DNA of 64,000 bases from a virus (IMGVR_UViG_2974664081_000001:1-64000), one strand, 5' to 3'; counted from the first letter of the stretch, positions 2,713 to 44,700 are shown. Notes: generated by a model from the letters alone, not told the origin. Program-made: numbers and translations.

Positions 2713-3041
2713 TGAAACCTCTCTATGCGATTCGCCAGATCAGCACAGGATTCTTCCTGCCCAACCCCAAGGGCAGGAATGGTAGTGGGGGCAGTTTTAC
2801 TGAACCCACGGATCCTAATGTAGAGCCTCCTCGGCTGTTCAAGAACAAAAAGGCTGCTGCCACTTGTCTGACCCAATGGGCCAAAGGTGAACACCATGCA
2901 CAATGGGACTATGCCGATACCGATGGCTTCGGTGGTGGAGGTGAACGCTATGTGGACAACATCACCATCAAGCCTGTGGCTAAGCGCAACATCCATGACA
3001 TGGAAGTTGTAGAGGTTGAACTGGTTGTATTCAACAATTAA
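2712..3041 (+). CDS. Hypothetical protein
   Basis: 109-aa ORF, TAATG coupling. Confidence 0.7.
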   Translation: MKPLYAIRQISTGFFLPNPKGRNGSGGSFTEPTDPNVEPPRLFKNKKAAATCLTQWAKGEHHAQWDYADTDGFGGGGERYVDNITIKPVAKRNIHDMEVVEVELVVFNN

Positions 3042-3052
3042 GGAGCGAACCA

Positions 3053-3331
3053 ATGGCACTACAGATGATGATGTTCCATCAAGGTGAGCAGCATGTAATC
3101 GATGTGAAGAACATCGAAGAGACTGAAGAAATCTTCTTCATGTCCAAGAACATCACCCTGTCCATGGAAGAACTCCGTACCGGACAGAAAGTGATCTATG
3201 GCGACTGGGGTCAGCGTCTGGAAGATGGCACTCCAGTGGAAGCCATGGTCATCGTGGGTCCTGATGTGACCTGCGAAAAAGCAATGAGACTTCTCCGTGA
3301 GGAGATCGAACGCCGACTGGTGGAACGATGA
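3053..3331 (+). CDS. Hypothetical protein
   Basis: 92-aa ORF, AAGGAG RBS. Confidence 0.7.
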   Translation: MALQMMMFHQGEQHVIDVKNIEETEEIFFMSKNITLSMEELRTGQKVIYGDWGQRLEDGTPVEAMVIVGPDVTCEKAMRLLREEIERRLVER

Positions 3332-3546
3332 AAACCCGACTGACTTCCGGCAATGCACCGCTGCATGTGCGACGTAAGCATTTGACCAATATCCTCCGGG
3401 ATGCGGTACATGCGTGCAAAACCACCATGAACAACTATCCAGATGAATTCGAGTTGCCAGCAGATCATGACATCCATGAACTTCTGCGCATTACCGAAAC
3501 CATCTGTGATGAGATGGAGACACCAAATGGATCAGGATCCAGCTGA
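3328..3546 (+). CDS. Hypothetical protein
   Basis: 72-aa ORF, ATGA overlap. Confidence 0.6.
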   Translation: MKTRLTSGNAPLHVRRKHLTNILRDAVHACKTTMNNYPDEFELPADHDIHELLRITETICDEMETPNGSGSS

Positions 3547-3709
3547 TGTACTGCTCAAAGTAGCCCGAGTGTCTTCATGGGAAAAAGCCAAGGCTTACCT
3601 CATCACTCTCGCTGCAACTGTTCCTCAAGGTTCTGTGCAATACCAACAACTAACTGATGCAATTGATCAGTTTGTAACCCACATTGAAGACAATAGTCTT
3701 CAGCAATAA
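3527..3709 (+). CDS. Hypothetical protein
   Basis: ATG at 3527 with GGAG RBS inside track ORF 3443..3709. Confidence 0.55.
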   Translation: MDQDPADVLLKVARVSSWEKAKAYLITLAATVPQGSVQYQQLTDAIDQFVTHIEDNSLQQ

Positions 3710-3724
3710 GCGAGCAACTCTCTG

Positions 3725-3955
3725 ATGAATAACCAAGAAGCCAAGGATTATCTCGGCAAGGCACTTGCCAAGAAAATGATCCGTTTAAGCGGGACTCAGA
3801 AAGAGATCGGTGACATGCTGTTTGTATCAGCTAGCACCGTCGGCAACATCATTAATGGGCACTATGAAAGATTGTCCATTCGTATGTACATGAAGTTAGC
3901 CAAAGAACTCCAAGTGAAGATCGAGATCTCGGTCAAGGATGATATCGATGGCTAG
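3725..3955 (+). CDS. XRE-family helix-turn-helix protein
   Basis: GTQKEIGDMLFVSASTVGNIING..LSIRMYMKLAKEL, typical HTH_3 pattern. Confidence 0.75.
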   Translation: MNNQEAKDYLGKALAKKMIRLSGTQKEIGDMLFVSASTVGNIINGHYERLSIRMYMKLAKELQVKIEISVKDDIDG

Positions 3956-5160: not shown

Positions 5161-5436
5161 ATGGCCATGTACAGCGTCAAGTGGCATCCCGACAAGCGGG
5201 ATCCAAGAAGCTCGTATTGGTACGAGTGTGAGGGTGTCATCACCTACGCCAGTGGCTTGCTGAAGCAGTGGGAAGGCGGGAGCCATAAGGCTCTCGTCCA
5301 TTTCCTGCACAAGAAAGGCAAGGAAATCTACTGGCTCAGTCGGCACTGCGTACCACCCACAATCAAATACCACGAGGAGCTGCTGGCCTGTACGGAAGCG
5401 CTCCTTGATCTTTTGAACCAAAGGAGTCAGCCATGA
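5161..5436 (+). CDS. Hypothetical protein
   Basis: 91-aa ORF, GAGG RBS. Confidence 0.6.
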   Translation: MAMYSVKWHPDKRDPRSSYWYECEGVITYASGLLKQWEGGSHKALVHFLHKKGKEIYWLSRHCVPPTIKYHEELLACTEALLDLLNQRSQP

Positions 5437-5699
5437 GCATCATCATCCATTTCCCCGAGAACCTTGATGGTTCGGAGTTTGTGCTCCCACCAGAAGACAT
5501 CGAGCATTTCAAGACCACTGTCATGCGAGCCACTGTGTGGAACATCAAGGAACGCACTGTGATCGTGCATATAAAGCATCGTCAGCCTAATGGCTGGCTG
5601 GAGCATTACATCGATGTCATCAACCCTGATGGTTCACGGGTTATCTTCATTGGTGCGATTCAACGCACCATCAATGGGACTTCCGAGTTCCACAGCTAA
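5433..5699 (+). CDS. Hypothetical protein
   Basis: 88-aa ORF, AAGGAG RBS, ATGA overlap. Confidence 0.7.
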   Translation: MSIIIHFPENLDGSEFVLPPEDIEHFKTTVMRATVWNIKERTVIVHIKHRQPNGWLEHYIDVINPDGSRVIFIGAIQRTINGTSEFHS

Positions 5700-18935: not shown

Positions 18936-20099
18936 ATGAGCGAATTGGATTACCAGCTGCTCCAGCGCGAGCTGGATCGGACCAAAGCCGAGGTGTTCCT
19001 CAACAACAGCACTGCTGGTTTCCTTGGCTCTGTCATGTGTTCGATGGAATTCATCTGGGATGAGACCATCCAAACCGCTTCAACTGATGGTCTACGCCTC
19101 TGGTGGAACCCCCATTGGTTCCTGTCCCTGACTCCGGCCAGTCGTAAGACCGTTCTGTACCACGAGATCTGGCACCCGGCCCGGCTGCACCTGATTCGTC
19201 GAGGTAGCCGAGACCACAAGATCTGGAACTATGCCTGCGACATTCGTATTAACAACGACTTGTTGCGGGAAGGTTTCACCTTTGAAGGCATCGAATGGGG
19301 TTGGATGGATCCTGAAATCGACAAGGGGCCGAAAGGCATCTTGGCGGAAGAAGAGATCTACGAGCTGCTGATGGCCAACCAGATGCAGCCTCCACCCCAA
19401 CCGACCGGTGGTAGTGGTCAACCGGGGGATGGCGATGTGGGTGACATGCGGGAACCAACAGAGCAAGAAATCCAACAGGTGGTGGCCAACGTAGTCATGG
19501 CCGTCCAGCAAGCCAAGCTGGCTGGCTGTGGTGGTGTGCCGGGTGTGACTCAACAAACTCTAGACAAGTTTCTGGAGTCCATCGTCCCGTGGGAAACCCT
19601 GTTGTGGCGGTTCTTTACCGACATGATGGACGAAGATTACAGCTGGAAGCGACCCAATCGACGCTACAGCGATATGTACATGCCATCCCGGCAGGAAGAT
19701 GATGGCAGGCTGGAACATCTGGCCTACTTCATCGACGTGTCAGGGTCCGTGTCTGATGCTGACGTGGTGCGTTGCAACAGCGAAATCCGCTACATCAAAG
19801 AGGAGCTGAAGCCCAAGAAGCTCAGCCTGTTCTTGTTCGACACCCGGATCACGAAAGAATATATCTTTGAGGAAGACGATCCTTTCGATAAGCTTGTCAT
19901 CGTTGGTCGGGGTGGGACCAGCTTTGAGCCGGTACGGGAGAAGATCAATGAGATCCAACCCACGGCAGCCGTCATTTTCTCCGACATGGATTGTCCTCCG
20001 ATGCAGCCGCTTGACTATGACATTCCAGTGATCTGGATCGCCGTCAATGCTCGCCGGAAGACAGTGCCATTCGGGGACATCATCTTCATCAGGAGCTGA
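18936..20099 (+). CDS. Metallopeptidase-like plus VWA domain protein (N4 gp25-like)
   Basis: HEIWH (HExxH), MIDAS DVSGS, GRGGT. Confidence 0.9.
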   Translation: MSELDYQLLQRELDRTKAEVFLNNSTAGFLGSVMCSMEFIWDETIQTASTDGLRLWWNPHWFLSLTPASRKTVLYHEIWHPARLHLIRRGSRDHKIWNYACDIRINNDLLREGFTFEGIEWGWMDPEIDKGPKGILAEEEIYELLMANQMQPPPQPTGGSGQPGDGDVGDMREPTEQEIQQVVANVVMAVQQAKLAGCGGVPGVTQQTLDKFLESIVPWETLLWRFFTDMMDEDYSWKRPNRRYSDMYMPSRQEDDGRLEHLAYFIDVSGSVSDADVVRCNSEIRYIKEELKPKKLSLFLFDTRITKEYIFEEDDPFDKLVIVGRGGTSFEPVREKINEIQPTAAVIFSDMDCPPMQPLDYDIPVIWIAVNARRKTVPFGDIIFIRS

Positions 20100-20103
20100 A
20101 CCA

Positions 20104-20604
20104 ATGGTAATCAACGGTCTGGAGCTGGTCGTCAAAGCCCCAATCCAAAACATGTCAGCGACTAAAAACGCCGACCATGGCACCAGCTGGGGTCTGTCTG
20201 AAGCTGGCTACGACATCCGCATCAAGCAGACCGTAAGCTTCCGTAAGTTCCTCGGCCTGTTCCCTCAAGTAAAAGTTGGGTGGGCAGGCAAGTGGAAGTT
20301 TGGGCGATTCGCCTTGGCTTCCGCTGAGGAGCTGTTCCAGATGCCAAACGACGTGCTTGGTATAGTCCATGACAAATCGACGTGGGCACGCCGAACACTG
20401 TCGGTCTTCAACACCGTCATTGAGCCGGGCTGGAAAGGCTATCTGACCTTGGAACTTGTCTTCCATGGCAGCAAGCCGGTTCACATTCCAGCCGGGTCCG
20501 GCATTGCTCAGGTCATTTTTCATGGCCTGTCCAACAGGGCGTCATACAACGGCAAGTACCAGAACCAAGAGGACCGACCGGTAGCGGCTCGGGAATCAGC
20601 ATGA
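20104..20604 (+). CDS. dcd: dCTP deaminase
   Basis: AGYDIRI, DKSTWAR, NTVIEPGWKGYLTLEL, YNGKYQNQ. Confidence 0.9.
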   Translation: MVINGLELVVKAPIQNMSATKNADHGTSWGLSEAGYDIRIKQTVSFRKFLGLFPQVKVGWAGKWKFGRFALASAEELFQMPNDVLGIVHDKSTWARRTLSVFNTVIEPGWKGYLTLELVFHGSKPVHIPAGSGIAQVIFHGLSNRASYNGKYQNQEDRPVAARESA

Positions 20605-20831
20605 ACCTGATAAACAAGTGCCAATGCTGTGGAAAAGACAACGGCTGGGCACTACTCGATCCTGAGTACGCCGATGTCTGTGGTGAATGTGAAGCAGATA
20701 CCTCCAATCCGATTGGATTTTTCGAGGGAAGGTATCAGCTAATGGCTACTTGCGGCTGTGGTGCAAAGGGTCCTGTGAATTACGGAAAGGACCAGTACTA
20801 CTGCGGCAAGGGTCCAAGCTGTTGCCCCTGA
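20601..20831 (+). CDS. Cys-rich micro-protein (10 Cys in 76 aa)
   Basis: CQCC, CGEC, CGCG, YYC...SCCP; ATGA overlap with dcd. Confidence 0.7.
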   Translation: MNLINKCQCCGKDNGWALLDPEYADVCGECEADTSNPIGFFEGRYQLMATCGCGAKGPVNYGKDQYYCGKGPSCCP

Positions 20832-20930
20832 GCTGTTGCTTGGGGGTAGCAGCCCTGAAGAACAACCCCGCCCCCGAGAGACAACTCGGTTATCAAACCC
20901 AATGCACCTGTGGTTTGGCTGACACGCAGG

Positions 20931-21065
20931 TTGCATTGGTGAAGCGTCTCAACCAGTGACGACTGGTAGGGAAAGCTCTCTGGGGCCTCAGCACGGTCTA
21001 ATGTTAAATCATTACCGGCTGGGGACTGCACGAAGATTGCCCGTTGAGACGCTTCACCAATGCAA
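20931..21065. repeat. Perfect 23-bp inverted repeat enclosing an 89-nt structured core
   Basis: TTGCATTGGTGAAGCGTCTCAAC (20931-20953) is the exact reverse complement of 21043-21065. Confidence 0.9.
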
Positions 21066-21089
21066 GTTGGAAAGAAGATTTTAATTTCT

Positions 21090-21188
21090 AGTCGGTAGTC
21101 CGTGCATGGGCACACCTCTGGCGTAGGCCACGCCTATTGAGGAACGGCAGCTTAGCGGCTGGTGGTTCGACTCCACATACCGGCTCCA
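21090..21188 (+). ncRNA. tRNA-like RNA with aberrant anticodon arm
   Basis: Acceptor (A)GTCGGTA/TACCGGC(T), encoded CCA, T-arm GTGG-TTCGACT-CCAC, variable-arm hairpin; no canonical 7-nt anticodon loop. Confidence 0.6.
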
Positions 21189-21242
21189 TTTTCTGATAGG
21201 TGGTCACTGCCTTCCCAGTGTCAATTAAAGGAGTTCAAACTC

Positions 21243-21680
21243 ATGCTCGGTTGGTTGAAGAAGAAAGCCAAAGTCACTGCCCGTGATGTGGCCAAGTTCG
21301 AAAAGAAAGACCTGATGGAAGCCACCGTCGGTATCGGTGTGCTGACCATGTGGGTCAGTGGTTCGGCTGAAGATGCTGAGCGTGAAAAACTCAACAAGAT
21401 CCTCGCCAACACCCCGGCCTTGGCCAACTTCGGCAGCGAAGTGCAGGGCACCCTGCAACGCTATGACACCATGTGCAAAGACATGGGCTTCATGGGCGCC
21501 AAGGTTCACATCATGCGCGAAATCAAGCAGTGCCAAGGCGACCAGCACGAGATGGAAGACGTTCTGGTCACCGGCCTGACCGTCGCTCTCTCCGATGGTG
21601 AGATGGACGAAAAAGAAGAGAAGCTGCTGCGTGAAGTGGCTTCCCTGTTCGGCCTACGTCTGGAAAACTTCCTGGCCTAA
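21243..21680 (+). CDS. TerB-like (tellurite-resistance family) protein
   Basis: AAGGAG RBS; GSAEDAEREKL and ALSDGEMDEKEEKLLREVASLFG resemble the paired TerB motifs. Confidence 0.75.
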   Translation: MLGWLKKKAKVTARDVAKFEKKDLMEATVGIGVLTMWVSGSAEDAEREKLNKILANTPALANFGSEVQGTLQRYDTMCKDMGFMGAKVHIMREIKQCQGDQHEMEDVLVTGLTVALSDGEMDEKEEKLLREVASLFGLRLENFLA

Positions 21681-21684
21681 GCCT

Positions 21685-21888
21685 ATGAAAGGTCTCCTGA
21701 AACTCATAGGCATCATAGTGCTGGGCCTGTCTGTATTCTTCGGCGGGATATCACTCTGGAACCGTTCGGTCTGCAAGATCTACGGTTGGCAGACTGAGCG
21801 TGAAACCAAATATGCAACCTTTGTGGGTTGCATGGTGGAACTCAACGGTAAGTGGTATCCCCGCAACGAATTGCGGATTGCCCAGTAA
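21685..21888 (+). CDS. Small membrane-anchored protein
   Basis: N-terminal TM then C..YG......KY....GCMV. Confidence 0.65.
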   Translation: MKGLLKLIGIIVLGLSVFFGGISLWNRSVCKIYGWQTERETKYATFVGCMVELNGKWYPRNELRIAQ

Positions 21889-21892
21889 AAGG

Positions 21893-21921
21893 AAATGGTG
21901 GCCTTCGGGTCACCATTTTTT
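21893..21921 (+). terminator. Rho-independent terminator
   Basis: AAATGGTGGCC-TTCG-GGTCACCATTT plus T run. Confidence 0.9.
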
Positions 21922-21933
21922 ATGGAGAATGTG

Positions 21934-22497
21934 ATGGGAAACGTGATCACCCTTCCTAGTTGGCTCAACGCCGTCAAAAAGGTCTACAACACCAAGACCG
22001 GAGGTGACATGACTCCGGTGGACGTGGCTCTGGCCTTTGCCCTGACCATCCGCCTGTACGGCACAGCTGATGCCCTGCGTAAGACAGCCCGGAACATCAC
22101 CGATAAAGTATGCCGTCAGCAGAAGCCGGGCATGAAGCGACTGTCCAAGGCCCCTGACGATGTGGTGTGGGAAGCCACCACCAAGATCGTCAACCGGGTC
22201 ACCGACATGCTGAAAATCTTCCCCGGCGAACAGATCCCCTTGGTTCCATTTGAGGAACCAAAGGAGCCTGAAGCCGACGAAGGCGAGATCCTTCGCTTGT
22301 TGGAGGAGATCGCCAACGAAGTGGCCAACCCCAAGAAGATCTGCGAGGAGGTCCTGTACCTTGCCGAGCAGCTTCCCCAACATCAACGAGCTGGGCTGTA
22401 CCTGATCGGAGGATCCAAGAATCCCCGAGCAGTGATCATGGCCATGCTCAGAACCAAGGAGGCAAAATCCATTGGCCGAAACAACGAACACGCTTGA
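21934..22497 (+). CDS. Hypothetical protein
   Basis: GGAG RBS, long ORF. Confidence 0.7.
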   Translation: MGNVITLPSWLNAVKKVYNTKTGGDMTPVDVALAFALTIRLYGTADALRKTARNITDKVCRQQKPGMKRLSKAPDDVVWEATTKIVNRVTDMLKIFPGEQIPLVPFEEPKEPEADEGEILRLLEEIANEVANPKKICEEVLYLAEQLPQHQRAGLYLIGGSKNPRAVIMAMLRTKEAKSIGRNNEHA

Positions 22498-41725: not shown

Positions 41726-44700
41726 TTATTGAACCAAGTTAGCCCATGGGTTCAACTCTGGTGCCCGGAGTCCTTGGCCCGGTCCCATCGAGTAATCCAA
41801 CGAACCATCCAGCAACTTGCTCACCACGTTGTCTTCCGTAGGCAAACCCACCGAGCCAAACAGAGTTGGTGCTGGAGCCAAGGTAGCCAACAGGGTATGT
41901 ACCGGGTTGTTTCGGATCATCGAAGCGGCCACTTTCACCGAACGGATCTTGAAGTTGTAGAACCACAGCAGACCGAGGTTTTCCAAGGTGCCACGGAAGC
42001 GGCCACTCAAACGGTCATAGTTCACAAACTCTTCCGACACTCGACCCAGTGCGTACTTACGGTCCTTCTTCTGCCGCTGAGTCAGGTCATCAAACAACAC
42101 AGCCTTAGCCAAGAAGTCACCGTACTCCACAGCTTTCTGGAGACCTTGGAACAAAGCAGTGTCCTTGGTGATGATGGCGTAGCGACCCATGGTGGCAATT
42201 GGTCCGGGCAGCTTGCTGACCAGACTTTCCACATAGGCTTGCAGACGGCCTTCAGTCAGTTGGATTTCCGAGCGAGTCAGGCCTGCATCCGAGATCGAAC
42301 TGAACTCACCGGCTTCGATCAGTGGCCAGATGCTCATCCGTTTGTGGGCATCGGTAATGGACTGGATTTCAGCATTGAGTTTCCGGGTCTTGATCGGATC
42401 ATCCGTGGAAGCCCGCAATTCTGCTTCAGCTTCAATCTGACGGATCCGACTCTTCACATACTGGTCCACCTCGGCTGTCTTCTTGGCCATGCCACGAACC
42501 ACGTTGACCAGAGGTACACCTCGGGCAGCCAGCTGATAGACGTTCGACATCAGGTTAGACACCGGCACTACCACCGACTTGACCACGATCAGGACTCGGG
42601 CATCCGAGACCAGATTCTTGAGCGTGGTTTCAGCATTGACGGTGTACTGGTACGCCTTGTTGCCAAACACCGAGATGGCCAGATTTTTCACCGTCTCCTG
42701 AGTTTTTGGCGACCACCGGCTGTTACCGGTCCAGGCATCTCCGATGGAAGCCGAACGGTAGCCCAAGGCATCGTTCAGCATGTCCTTGCGCACATAGAAG
42801 TCGTCACCAAACACCGACTTGATGTAGTCACGAGTATCCCGGTTGAACAGCTCAGCCGCATCCTGAAGCACTGGGTCAGACGAGGCGAAGACGTTCACAT
42901 ACTGGGCTTGGTTCGCCTTGGATGCTTTCAGATCTTTGTCGTACATGGCCTTGAGGTTGTCGATCAACCGCTCGTTGAACTTCTGCGAGCTGGCCTCTTC
43001 CACCTGACGGCCACGCCATTGACCGATCATCTTGGCCAGATGGTTCTCCCCTTGGATCCGCTCAAGCATTACCGGATCGAGGCTGCGTTCAAAGGCCACT
43101 ACCTCACCCGCAGGGTTGTAGACCGGCAGCAGGTTTTCCCGATTGGATCGCTCATTGGCGATGGCCTTGGCAATCTTCTTGACCGTGGCCTCCTCAGTGA
43201 TGCGACCAGCATTGGGAGCCAAGGAGTATCCGGTAGTGGCATCTACGCCGGAGGCAGTCTGCCGGGCATTCTGCATGATGCCTTGCTCATAGCCTGCACG
43301 AGCAGCAGCCGGGGCGTAGTAGTAGGACTTGTTGCCCTTGCCACGGTCCAGATTGCTGCCCCCATATTCCTGCACCCGAACGTAGGACTGAGCAGCCAGC
43401 TTGGCAAACTCAGTGTCATCGGCTACCAGCATGGACACGCCTTCCTGCTGGGCAGAAGGAATGTAACCCTTGAAGTGGTTCACCTGAGTGGCCGGACTGT
43501 TCACCTTCCGTTGTTCATCAACACGCTGGCCCAACAGGTAGGACAGGGTGAAGCCGATCCCATCACCTTCGGTCTGAACCAAGGAAGACAACGTATCCAT
43601 GTGGCCCGGCTCCAGTTGCTTGAGGGCATACATGGTTACCAGCTGGTCCACACCCTTGACGAAAGTGTCGCCTTTGGTGGCCCAGTCTTTCTGCTTGGAC
43701 TCGCCAAACAGTTGGGAGACGGCATAAGCGTTACGCAGCAGGTTGGTGCCCGGATCACTGGTCAGCATGTAGTTGGCCAGTTGGTTCGCTTTGCGTTGCA
43801 ACAGTTTCCAGTGAGCAGGATCCTCGTTCTGAAGGAACGATTCCAAGGTAGCAATGTTGCTGTCCAGCTTTTTGCTGTCAGTGATCATCTCGTTGATCTG
43901 TTTCTGGGTGAAGGCATCACGCAGAACTGCCAGATCTGTCTTACCCATCGACATATGCAGACTGCTCCACTCTTGGGCAGTCAGTTGACGGGAGAACTTC
44001 TCGGCAATCAGAGATGGCAGATGTTCACGGAATTGCTGGCGAGTTTGCTGAACCACGGAGCGAACTCCTTTGATCATGTCGTAAACCGAAGCGTTGTTCT
44101 TGGTTCGACCAATCAGGTCATTCACCAGCGTGTGCAAAGGCTCCCAGACTTTCATCCGGTTCATTGCCGTCATCACACCCTGCGACACAATCTGACCCGA
44201 CTGCTCATTGATCACAGCACCGATGCCTGCACCGAAACCAGTCACCATACGGGTAACCTTGTTGGCACCAGCCTTGCGAGCTTTGGAGTCTGCATCCAGC
44301 AGTCTCTGCGAAAGGCTGGTCATACCGTCCACCACGATCTCGTTGGCTCGGTCAATGTACCCACCCGATTTCGAAGCCATCTGATCGATGAAGGTTTCCC
44401 GGTCCTGCACCTGCTTACCGATGTGAGCGTTCAGGGCGTCAATTGCCTGTTCCACGTTGGCCGCTTTTTTAATGCCTGCCATTCGATCCGTCAGGGCATC
44501 CATCACCTGATTGCCTGCGTTTTCCAGCACGGCATCCAGAGTACCTTCTTGGTTCCGCTCGGTACGCGGCAACTCCATTTTCTGGAGCACAGCCCGGAAT
44601 TCATCATTGACCGTGGCCAGAGCCAAGAAGCTCGGCAGCAAGGTCGAACGACCATGAATGTCCATCTCGGTCAGGTAGTTACCCATGATCGAGTTGTACT

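Follow-up and report, generated by a model that had tools for sequence, protein, structure and literature searches.

An intergenic stretch in an operon of an N4-like phage carries, on its + strand, a non-coding array of independently exchangeable structured RNA modules, and these modules are under purifying selection for structure. The array, hereafter the island, lies between a Cys-rich ORF and a TerB-family gene in the 64,000-nucleotide stretch of viral DNA that we analysed (the window). Described here are a conserved single-copy structured RNA element and an irregular tRNA derivative, both missed by standard annotation tools. In the literature on these phages and on tRNA-like or non-coding RNA in N4-like phages, we found no description of the island.

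The gene-free gap and its relatives

The window belongs to a phage genome of 75,873 bp that carries direct terminal repeats. The phage is an N4-like (Schitoviridae) Pseudomonas phage; the N4-like assignment is based on a 3,474-aa ORF, on gene order, and on the relatives of the Cys-rich ORF. The 3,474-aa ORF lies on the minus strand beside three tRNA genes. The operon runs AAA ATPase, VWA/metallopeptidase, dCTP deaminase, Cys-rich ORF, which is the order in annotated N4-like phages. Relatives of the Cys-rich ORF were found in 24 records, all of them N4-like phages, with hosts in Pseudomonas, Achromobacter, Stenotrophomonas, Xanthomonas, and Burkholderia. The nearest named relative of the window is Pseudomonas phage Ebordelon.

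From the end of the Cys-rich ORF to the ATG of terB at 21243, the gap measures 411 nt (20832-21242) in an operon that is otherwise tightly packed, the genes bordering the gap overlapping or abutting their neighbors. It contains ORFs of 28, 42, and 69 aa on the + strand and one of 105 aa on the minus strand. None of the three tested matched a PHROG family and no gap ORF is kept in the relative L011, a 77-kb metagenome contig; a coding reading of the island is ruled out by this lack of family matches and of conserved ORFs. Both observations agree with an earlier sequence-only reading, which had described a gap of about 410 nt in a tightly packed operon with no credible + strand ORF. GC skew gave no signal at the island, and no TerB relatives were found in the collection of genome contigs.

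We compared the island with known RNA families. In Rfam 15, the top match within it scored 16 bits (E 1.8), where the gathering score is 34.1, and the homologous islands of eight loci had no match inside them at E values up to 1. The earlier statement that the RNA belongs to no recognised family is thus upheld by covariance models. ARAGORN predicted three tRNAs in the window, none of them in the island, and none in the islands of relatives. Rfam models of the tRNA clan, tRNA-Sec included, had no match in 20700-21300 at E values up to 10. A tmRNA was rejected as a candidate: neither ARAGORN nor Rfam reported one in the window, whereas both do detect a permuted tmRNA in the 72-kb viral contig L009.

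Folded as + strand RNA, the whole region has a minimum free energy of -151.4 kcal/mol compared to -123.7 +/- 6.6 kcal/mol for shuffled sequences (z -4.2; 0 of 100 as good). The minus strand folds somewhat less well relative to its shuffles (z -3.6). The sequence-only reading had called the region densely structured, and all the helices that it listed were found (Table 1). Its CCGAG/CTCGG hairpin, the hairpin that follows, the perfect 23-bp stalk with a structured interior, and the tRNA-like module ending in CCA are all present, and helices are kept in related phages by compensatory changes. One claim needs correction. The GCTGTTGC/GTAGCAGC hairpin at 20832-20853 does exist, but merely as a shorter, 8-bp alternative to a 16-bp hairpin that begins further upstream; the alternative arises because the 8-mer GCTGTTGC occurs twice. 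The form kept in relatives is the longer one.

Table 1. Features of the island and its borders, in window coordinates
Feature	Position	Strand	Basis or remark
Cys-rich ORF	20601-20831	+	upstream border of gap; stop codon 20829-20831
16-bp hairpin, G+C-rich, 4-nt loop	20818-20853	+	spans the Cys-rich ORF stop codon
Hairpin 1, 5-bp stem, conserved loop AGACAA	20874-20889	+	covariation
Linker UUAUCAAAC, single-stranded, conserved	20890-20898	+	sequence conservation
Hairpin 2, CCAAUGCA pairs with UGCAUUGG, inner hairpin	20899-20939	+	fold and covariation
Long stalk, 23 perfect bp (24 in the MFE fold), 89-nt structured interior	20931-21065	+	inverted repeat and relatives
tRNA-derived module, five-arm cloverleaf	21090-21188	+	fold and comparison with relatives
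Acceptor stem, 7 bp	21091-21097 / 21178-21184	+	fold, covariation
D-like arm, tetraloop containing GG	21102-21113	+	
Extended arm, 5-nt loop, replacing the anticodon arm	21115-21142	+	arm about 4 bp too long
Variable arm, invariant, 5-bp stem, 4-nt loop	21148-21161	+	
T arm GGTTCGACTCC, 4-bp stem, loop UUCGACU	21162-21176	+	
U73; encoded CCA	21185; 21186-21188	+	
Leader AUAGGUGGU, with hairpin 21203-21222 (loop CCUUCC) and Shine-Dalgarno GGAG 21230-21233	21196-21233	+	conservation
TerB-family gene	21243-21680	+	Pfam TerB E 8.5e-12; PHROG 632 E 3.6e-38; context, outside the RNA element

The island or parts of it were found in Ebordelon (L001), in L011, and in the 72-kb viral contig, which was recovered twice (L009/L012). 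Further carriers are Pseudomonas phages Arace01 (L004), 98PfluR60PP (L005), and Littlefix (L007), and Erwinia phage UCB24 (L008). These sequences represent only three distinct versions of the tRNA module (module 2) and about five independent lineages for module 1, which is headed by the 5′ hairpins and linker.

The tRNA-like module

Judged by sequence comparison, module 2 is a derivative of a tRNA, of the irregular kind with a long variable arm, and occupies the ancestral tRNA slot. Its predicted fold is no more stable than those of shuffled sequences (z -0.6 to -1.0); support for the module comes from comparison with relatives, not from folding energy. Homologues were found only in L011, Arace01, and 98PfluR60PP. 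Among the three distinct sequences, 92% of cells are paired, compared to 31-47% when the partner column is slid, and 4 of 17 pairs have changed on both sides. The acceptor and T stems keep pairing through these four double changes, and the variable arm and U73 are the same in all three. The copy in 98PfluR60PP forms a clean cloverleaf (z -3.25) with a 7-nt loop, AUCUAGA, that presents the anticodon CUA with U33. The copy in Arace01 folds worse than shuffled sequences (z +1.1) and has two mismatches in its acceptor stem. A covariance model of the module (R2) scored it at 85.6 bits; the next-best matches were real tRNAs at 17-25 bits, with tRNA-Ser at the top (25 bits). The T loop agrees with the motif GGTTCRANYCC. 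Set against a canonical tRNA, the module has the acceptor stem, the T arm and loop, the discriminator, and the CCA, and it lacks the family score and the 7-nt anticodon loop. A pattern built from the variable arm and T arm had no matches in IMG/VR and none in the collection of genome contigs.

Location also connects the module to tRNAs. The homologue in 98PfluR60PP lies directly after a tRNA-Arg gene, within a tRNA cluster. The genome paper for this phage, in the portion available, reports one tRNA gene (PMC6325676), which fits the failure of ARAGORN to detect the mimic. In Pokken, RiverRider, and Axy24, tRNA clusters are located a few kb downstream of the same pair of dCTP-deaminase and Cys-rich ORF genes. 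The island lies in the slot where related Schitoviridae carry tRNA genes. Ebordelon and a contig of run X5 lack the module itself, as does Littlefix at the corresponding spot.

A position of this kind could be that of a relic: a decaying tRNA pseudogene with leftover spacer and an ordinary mRNA-stabilising hairpin, none of it yielding functional small RNAs. The rate of change speaks otherwise. The module is identical to that of L011 at 99 of 99 nt, whereas terB beside it differs at 21 of 331 aligned nt; a module more conserved than terB argues against a decaying pseudogene. So do the double changes that keep the acceptor and T stems and the variable arm that is invariant in three diverged phages, and module 1 covaries and is more conserved than the neighboring genes. 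We consider a relic unlikely, even though it would fit the tRNA slot, the rejection of the module by ARAGORN and the Rfam tRNA model, the window copy without a 7-nt anticodon loop, the acceptor mismatches in Arace01, and the absence of the module from Ebordelon, Littlefix, and the X5 contig.

Module 1, the stalk, and the exchangeable interior

At the 5′ end of the island, the 16-bp hairpin is strongly stable (-30.2 kcal/mol, z -5.9, 0 of 200 shuffles as good). It recurs in Ebordelon with 16 bp, where the changes run through G-U pairs only, and in L011 with 13 bp. Hairpin 1 keeps its stem while the stem sequence shifts: CCGAG/CUCGG in the window becomes CUCAG/CUGAG in 98PfluR60PP and Littlefix, CUGGG/CCCAG in UCB24, and CCAG/CUGG in L009. 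Both sides differ at three of its five pairs, and the proportion of paired cells is 95%. Together, hairpin 1 and the linker make up a 24-nt block (20877-20900) that is also present exactly, with two stem positions left free, in Ebordelon, L011, 98PfluR60PP, Littlefix, and L009/L012. The window has one copy at up to three mismatches, and the block was rejected as a repeated promoter on account of this single copy.

Hairpin 2 has changed on both sides in four of nine pairs. In 98PfluR60PP, CCAAUGCA is replaced by CCGAUAUAG, opposite CUGUAUCGG, which creates a U-G pair that is viable on the + strand only. The 5′ arm of the stalk begins with the letters that form the 3′ arm of hairpin 2, which makes the two structures mutually exclusive. 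Taking module 1 as a whole, an alignment of eight sequences has 88% of cells paired, compared to 22-37% with the partner column slid, and 7 of 14 pairs changed on both sides. Its covariation score was reached by none of 500 shuffles, a test that relatedness inflates, as the eight sequences derive from about five lineages. Identity between the window and L011 is 97% in the 5′ part of module 1, 75-81% in the upstream coding flank, and 94% in terB.

In four complete or near-complete carrier genomes, a covariance model of module 1 (R1) found a single copy each. It had no match in the terB-carrying phage G001. In Pokken, Axy24, HN02, and RiverRider, scanned over their first 34-35 kb, no match was credible (the best, in Pokken, had 12.6 bits and E 0.2), and the same holds for LUZ7 over its first 45 kb (best 11.9 bits, outside the orf69-orf70 region). 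A 36-nt string from module 1 had 0 matches in IMG/VR.

The window contains six inverted repeats, and the stalk is the only long-range one. Its 23-nt arms (20931-20953 and 21043-21065) are 100% complementary and start from a conserved 9-bp base, UUGCAUUGG/CCAAUGCAA. The stalk pairs in all seven phages examined, with lengths of 24, 24, 23, 23, 19, 27, and 30 bp around interiors of 73-192 nt. Double changes keep it paired, for example between Arace01 and UCB24 and between the sisters 98PfluR60PP and Littlefix. We also considered a MITE or Correia-like element and rejected it: the window has one copy, no direct repeat flanks 20931-21065, and the stalk has the same position relative to hairpin 2 in 7 of 7 phages. 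The seven stalks hold 15 G-U cells and one A-C cell, a bias that favors + strand RNA over a DNA structure. Together with the U-G pair in hairpin 2 and the orientation of the genes, it is the basis for reading the island on the + strand.

This bias also bears on whether the repeats act as DNA. Module 1 is found exactly once in four of the five records searched and the 24-nt block once in the window, as would suit a single-copy DNA site such as a replication origin or an N4-like hairpin promoter, with the repeats extruded as hairpins or cruciforms. N4-like early promoters and LUZ7 middle promoters are indeed DNA hairpins, the latter G+C-rich with a stem of at least 6 bp and a 3-4-nt loop, according to the part of the LUZ7 study available (PMC9163698), and the 16-bp hairpin at 20818-20853 has a 4-nt loop. 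However, stalk interiors of 73-192 nt are unlike the loops of such promoters, the ratio of 15 G-U cells to one A-C cell points to RNA, and covariation that keeps helices while the sequence shifts is not what protein-binding DNA sites display. A DNA-level role for the island is improbable in our view; our main reading would leave room for the first hairpin by itself to be a promoter.

The competition between hairpin 2 and the stalk raises a further alternative, a cis-regulatory leader or RNA switch in which the invariant loop and linker sense a signal or protein, and the choice between the two folds controls how terB and the genes after it are expressed. In all three lineages, region 2 is complementary to region 1 as well as to region 3, with covariation, the 24-nt block is near-invariant across distant phages, and the 16-bp hairpin overlaps the stop codon of the Cys-rich ORF, whose translation would therefore open the hairpin. 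What such a switch would control is not constant, however: the island is followed by terB in the window, by a small ORF in UCB24, and by more non-coding sequence in Littlefix. Moreover, no terminator follows the stalk in the window, and no Rfam riboswitch family matched in the island. We rate a switch as having a low probability.

Part of the stalk is exchanged between phages, a segment that comprises the extension and interior (20940-21056). Ebordelon retains the flanks and the 9-bp base found in the window; its extension and interior are unrelated in sequence and again yield a stalk of 22-24 bp. Contigs from three DNA runs match the window up to 20939 and rejoin it at 21057, with 104 different letters in between, the computed length of an Ebordelon-type insert. 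L011 and one of these contigs may come from the same phage. The 117-nt version in the window is so far unique among the sequences compared. Turnover at module 2 follows a separate pattern: Ebordelon and the X5 contig have another element of about 190 nt in place of the tRNA module, and L011 has the tRNA module and this element in tandem. Since the two parts are present, absent, or replaced separately in Ebordelon, L011, and the contigs of the three runs, the stalk interior and the tRNA module behave, at the level of genome comparison, as independent cassettes swapped among close relatives.

Downstream of module 2, a small hairpin (module 3) lies shortly before the ribosome-binding site of terB. 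In Erwinia phage UCB24 the leader and loop are the same, the gene that follows is another one, and three pairs of the stem differ on both sides. By energy the hairpin is weak (z +0.5), and the evidence for this module is thin.

Processing model and comparison with known systems

How might the island work? The explanation that we prefer, to which we assign roughly an even chance, is that the island is a modular RNA, co-transcribed with the operon and processed by the host, whose modules would act as cut sites or be released as small RNAs. No sigma-70-like or terminator-like site was found on the + strand in 19800-22200, from which we infer that a + strand transcript of the middle-gene operon reads through the island from upstream. 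The phage genome encodes none of RNase III, a CCA-adding enzyme, or an RNA ligase (0 of 1 genome each), so any processing would have to use host enzymes. Host RNase III would cut the 23-bp stalk, which exceeds the approximately two turns (at least 20 bp) of regular double-stranded RNA that this enzyme acts on, and RNase P and host 3′ trimming enzymes would cut at the tRNA mimic. As a result, the stalk interior and the mimic would be freed as discrete small RNAs, the upstream mRNA would be left with a 3′ hairpin, and the terB mRNA would gain a new 5′ end near the module 3 hairpin. With these new ends, the upstream and downstream halves of the operon could each have a stability of their own. The sequence-only reading had assigned the stalk to RNase III and the tRNA-like module to RNase P, and both assignments are plausible on a structural model, given the textbook size of the double-stranded stalk and the acceptor/T-arm geometry of the module. 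Its suggestion of anti-defence decoys found no support.

A plain processing site does not account for the wholesale replacement of the interior between near-identical phages. Furthermore, the invariant 24-nt block and the conserved exclusion between hairpin 2 and the stalk suggest a function beyond processing. A more speculative proposal, which we put forward only tentatively and judge rather unlikely, is that module 1 is an undescribed RNA family of N4-like phages that serves as an expression platform for small RNAs. The head would guide folding and RNase III would free the stalk payload. The payload and the non-decoding tRNA mimic with its invariant variable arm would be exchanged because they are aimed at fast-changing targets in hosts or competitors, for example defence proteins that bind tRNA or sense RNA.

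N4-like phages are models for phage transcription and serve as biocontrol agents, and their non-coding RNAs are almost undescribed. The island offers clear module boundaries, natural presence/absence variants, and cultivable relatives, namely Ebordelon on P. putida, Arace01, and 98PfluR60PP. It opens the questions of how a phage with its own RNA polymerases punctuates long operons, whether tRNA look-alikes without an anticodon serve as processing signals or protein decoys, and why the interior of a conserved stalk is exchanged between near-identical genomes.

Among known systems, we rate the finding as belonging with phage small structured RNAs, tRNA-like processing elements, and RNase III stalks. 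RNase III cuts the stalks of pre-rRNA around 16S and 23S and the intercistronic sites of phage T7 early mRNA. As in those substrates, a long near-perfect double-stranded stem flanks a structured interior, and as in T7, the stalk lies between cistrons of a phage operon; its 23-30 bp are well above the RNase III minimum. The island differs in that its site is a predicted one, with one stalk per genome, a swapped interior, and a 5′ arm shared with a competing hairpin. In phage T4, the tRNA region also gives rise to stable RNAs, species 1 and 2, which are interspersed with tRNA genes and undergo maturation by the enzymes that process tRNAs. The possible likeness is that of small stable phage RNAs beside tRNA genes.

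Module 2 has a counterpart in the t-elements of plant mitochondria, which the available part of their description presents as non-canonical tRNA-like cloverleafs with a GGTTCRANYCC T-arm motif, located in mRNA precursors, where RNase P and RNase Z act on them to set the 5′ and 3′ ends of mRNAs (PMC1920247). The window module shares the cloverleaf and the T-arm motif of the elements so described (PMC1920247). It differs from them in belonging to another domain of life, in having no homology to them, in encoding CCA, and in its long invariant variable arm, and its processing is a prediction.

Allo-tRNAs are a second point of comparison for module 2. As far as the accessible text of the allo-tRNA study goes, they occur in phages and in polycistrons of irregular tRNAs, and some irregular tRNAs are reported to be inactive in translation and are proposed to be regulatory RNAs (PMC5389517). 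The long variable arm, U73, 4-bp T stem, and D tetraloop of the window module correspond to features given there (PMC5389517). Allo-tRNAs have a 12-bp acceptor branch (8/4 or 9/3) and a long variable arm with G73 or U73. The module has the latter combination, and it reaches 12 layers through seven Watson-Crick or G-U pairs, a G-A layer, and the 4-bp T stem, the eighth acceptor layer being a purine-purine mismatch in all three sequences. By contrast, its 5-nt loop and its lack of a match to tRNA-Sec or tRNA models set it apart, and we do not class it as an allo-tRNA because of the anticodon loop and the absent similarity to tRNA-Sec. That the module is nevertheless a working irregular tRNA, allo-tRNA-like, aminoacylated, and active in translation, with amber suppression as one possible use, is the least probable reading and a very doubtful one: the CUA anticodon with U33 in the clean 98PfluR60PP cloverleaf, the UCCUAGG at the corresponding place in Arace01, and the resemblance to 8/4 allo-tRNAs in the published portion cited (PMC5389517) are countered by the window copy with its 5-nt loop on an overlong arm, by the tRNA and tRNA-Sec models that failed to match even at E up to 10, by the mismatched eighth acceptor layer, and by the lack of any sign of TAG avoidance in 98PfluR60PP, where TAG ends 10 of 48 annotated genes; in the window it ends 8 of 64 long ORFs. 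Decoding by the window copy is unlikely on the grounds of the missing 7-nt loop and the TAG stops in 98PfluR60PP, and in our preferred processing model the mimic would not act as a decoder.

A parallel in setting is found in LUZ7, an N4-like phage. In the part of that work available, the orf69-orf70 region is an intergenic island of about 400 nt on the + strand that produces several small RNAs, one of them apparently processed, as late transcripts with their own start site (PMC9163698). The two loci differ in genome position and have no homology, R1 having no match in that region. They share the arrangement of an approximately 400-nt + strand intergenic island in an N4-like Pseudomonas phage, as far as it is described there (PMC9163698), and the LUZ7 region, like ours, contains long-range stalks.

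An alternative pairing in the window

We found the 8-mer TACCGGCT in the stalk interior and again in the 3' acceptor strand of the tRNA mimic, and because of this duplication the 5' acceptor strand can form 15 bp with the stalk interior (21011-21025, 21085-21099). This alternative pairing is restricted to the interior type present in the window.

Non-coding regions in other phages

The features that we identified in other phages and contigs are collected in the table. Module 1, the hairpin 1 and linker block with hairpin 2 and the long stalk, is absent from the gap upstream of terB in L002, another phage carrying a TerB-family gene. The orf69-orf70 intergenic region of the N4-like phage LUZ7 is described as the origin of three small RNAs (PMC9163698). 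The long module 1-headed stretch in the Littlefixvirus phages is large by phage standards.

Non-coding features in phages and contigs, in locus coordinates
Feature	Position	Details
Site in the 265-nt gap upstream of terB	L002 2290-2400	IMG/VR phage, 77 kb; terminator and two T-arm-like motifs
orf69-orf70 intergenic region	LUZ7 (L029) 42640-43010	Two long-range stalks: 10+11 bp and 12 bp
Permuted tmRNA, alpha-proteobacterial type	L009 7115-7477	Minus strand; Rfam alpha_tmRNA, 121 bits; identical sequence in L012
T-arm followed by CUCGCU	Arace01 (L004) 3120-3160; UCB24 (L008) 1510-1550; Littlefix (L007) 3800-3830	Stems covarying
Ebordelon-type element, ~190 nt	L011 1165-1340; Ebordelon (L001) about 3460-3650	Substitutes for the tRNA mimic or stands before it
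tRNA genes carrying large insertions within or close to the anticodon arm	Littlefix (L007) 5273-5485; 98PfluR60PP (L005) 2660-2880	In the tRNA clusters
Non-coding stretch, ~900 nt	98PfluR60PP (L005) 279-1181; Littlefix (L007) 3002-3885	Littlefixvirus phages; module 1 at its head

tmRNA, tRNA genes and tRNA-like elements

The 72-kb viral contig that was found twice (L009, L012) carries a tmRNA gene in addition to the hairpin 1/linker block that it has in common with the window. The tag peptide ends in LAA (ARAGORN), and the gene adjoins tRNA-Met and tRNA-Pro, followed by ~800 nt more of non-coding sequence. The insertion-bearing tRNA genes in the Littlefix and 98PfluR60PP clusters went undetected by ARAGORN; in the Littlefix cluster the Rfam tRNA model gives a 134-nt hit (5352-5485) at 48 bits. 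The Ebordelon-type element, which contains three T-loop-like motifs and one 14-bp hairpin, matched neither tRNA models nor Rfam families.

A recurrent T-arm and its likeness to Y RNAs

Searched against Rfam, the T-arm/CUCGCU element gave no match. In Littlefix it is found towards the end of an 880-nt island, whereas Arace01 and Erwinia phage UCB24 have it within the stalk. A stalk enclosing a T-arm, as in these last two phages, is reminiscent of the bacterial Y RNAs.
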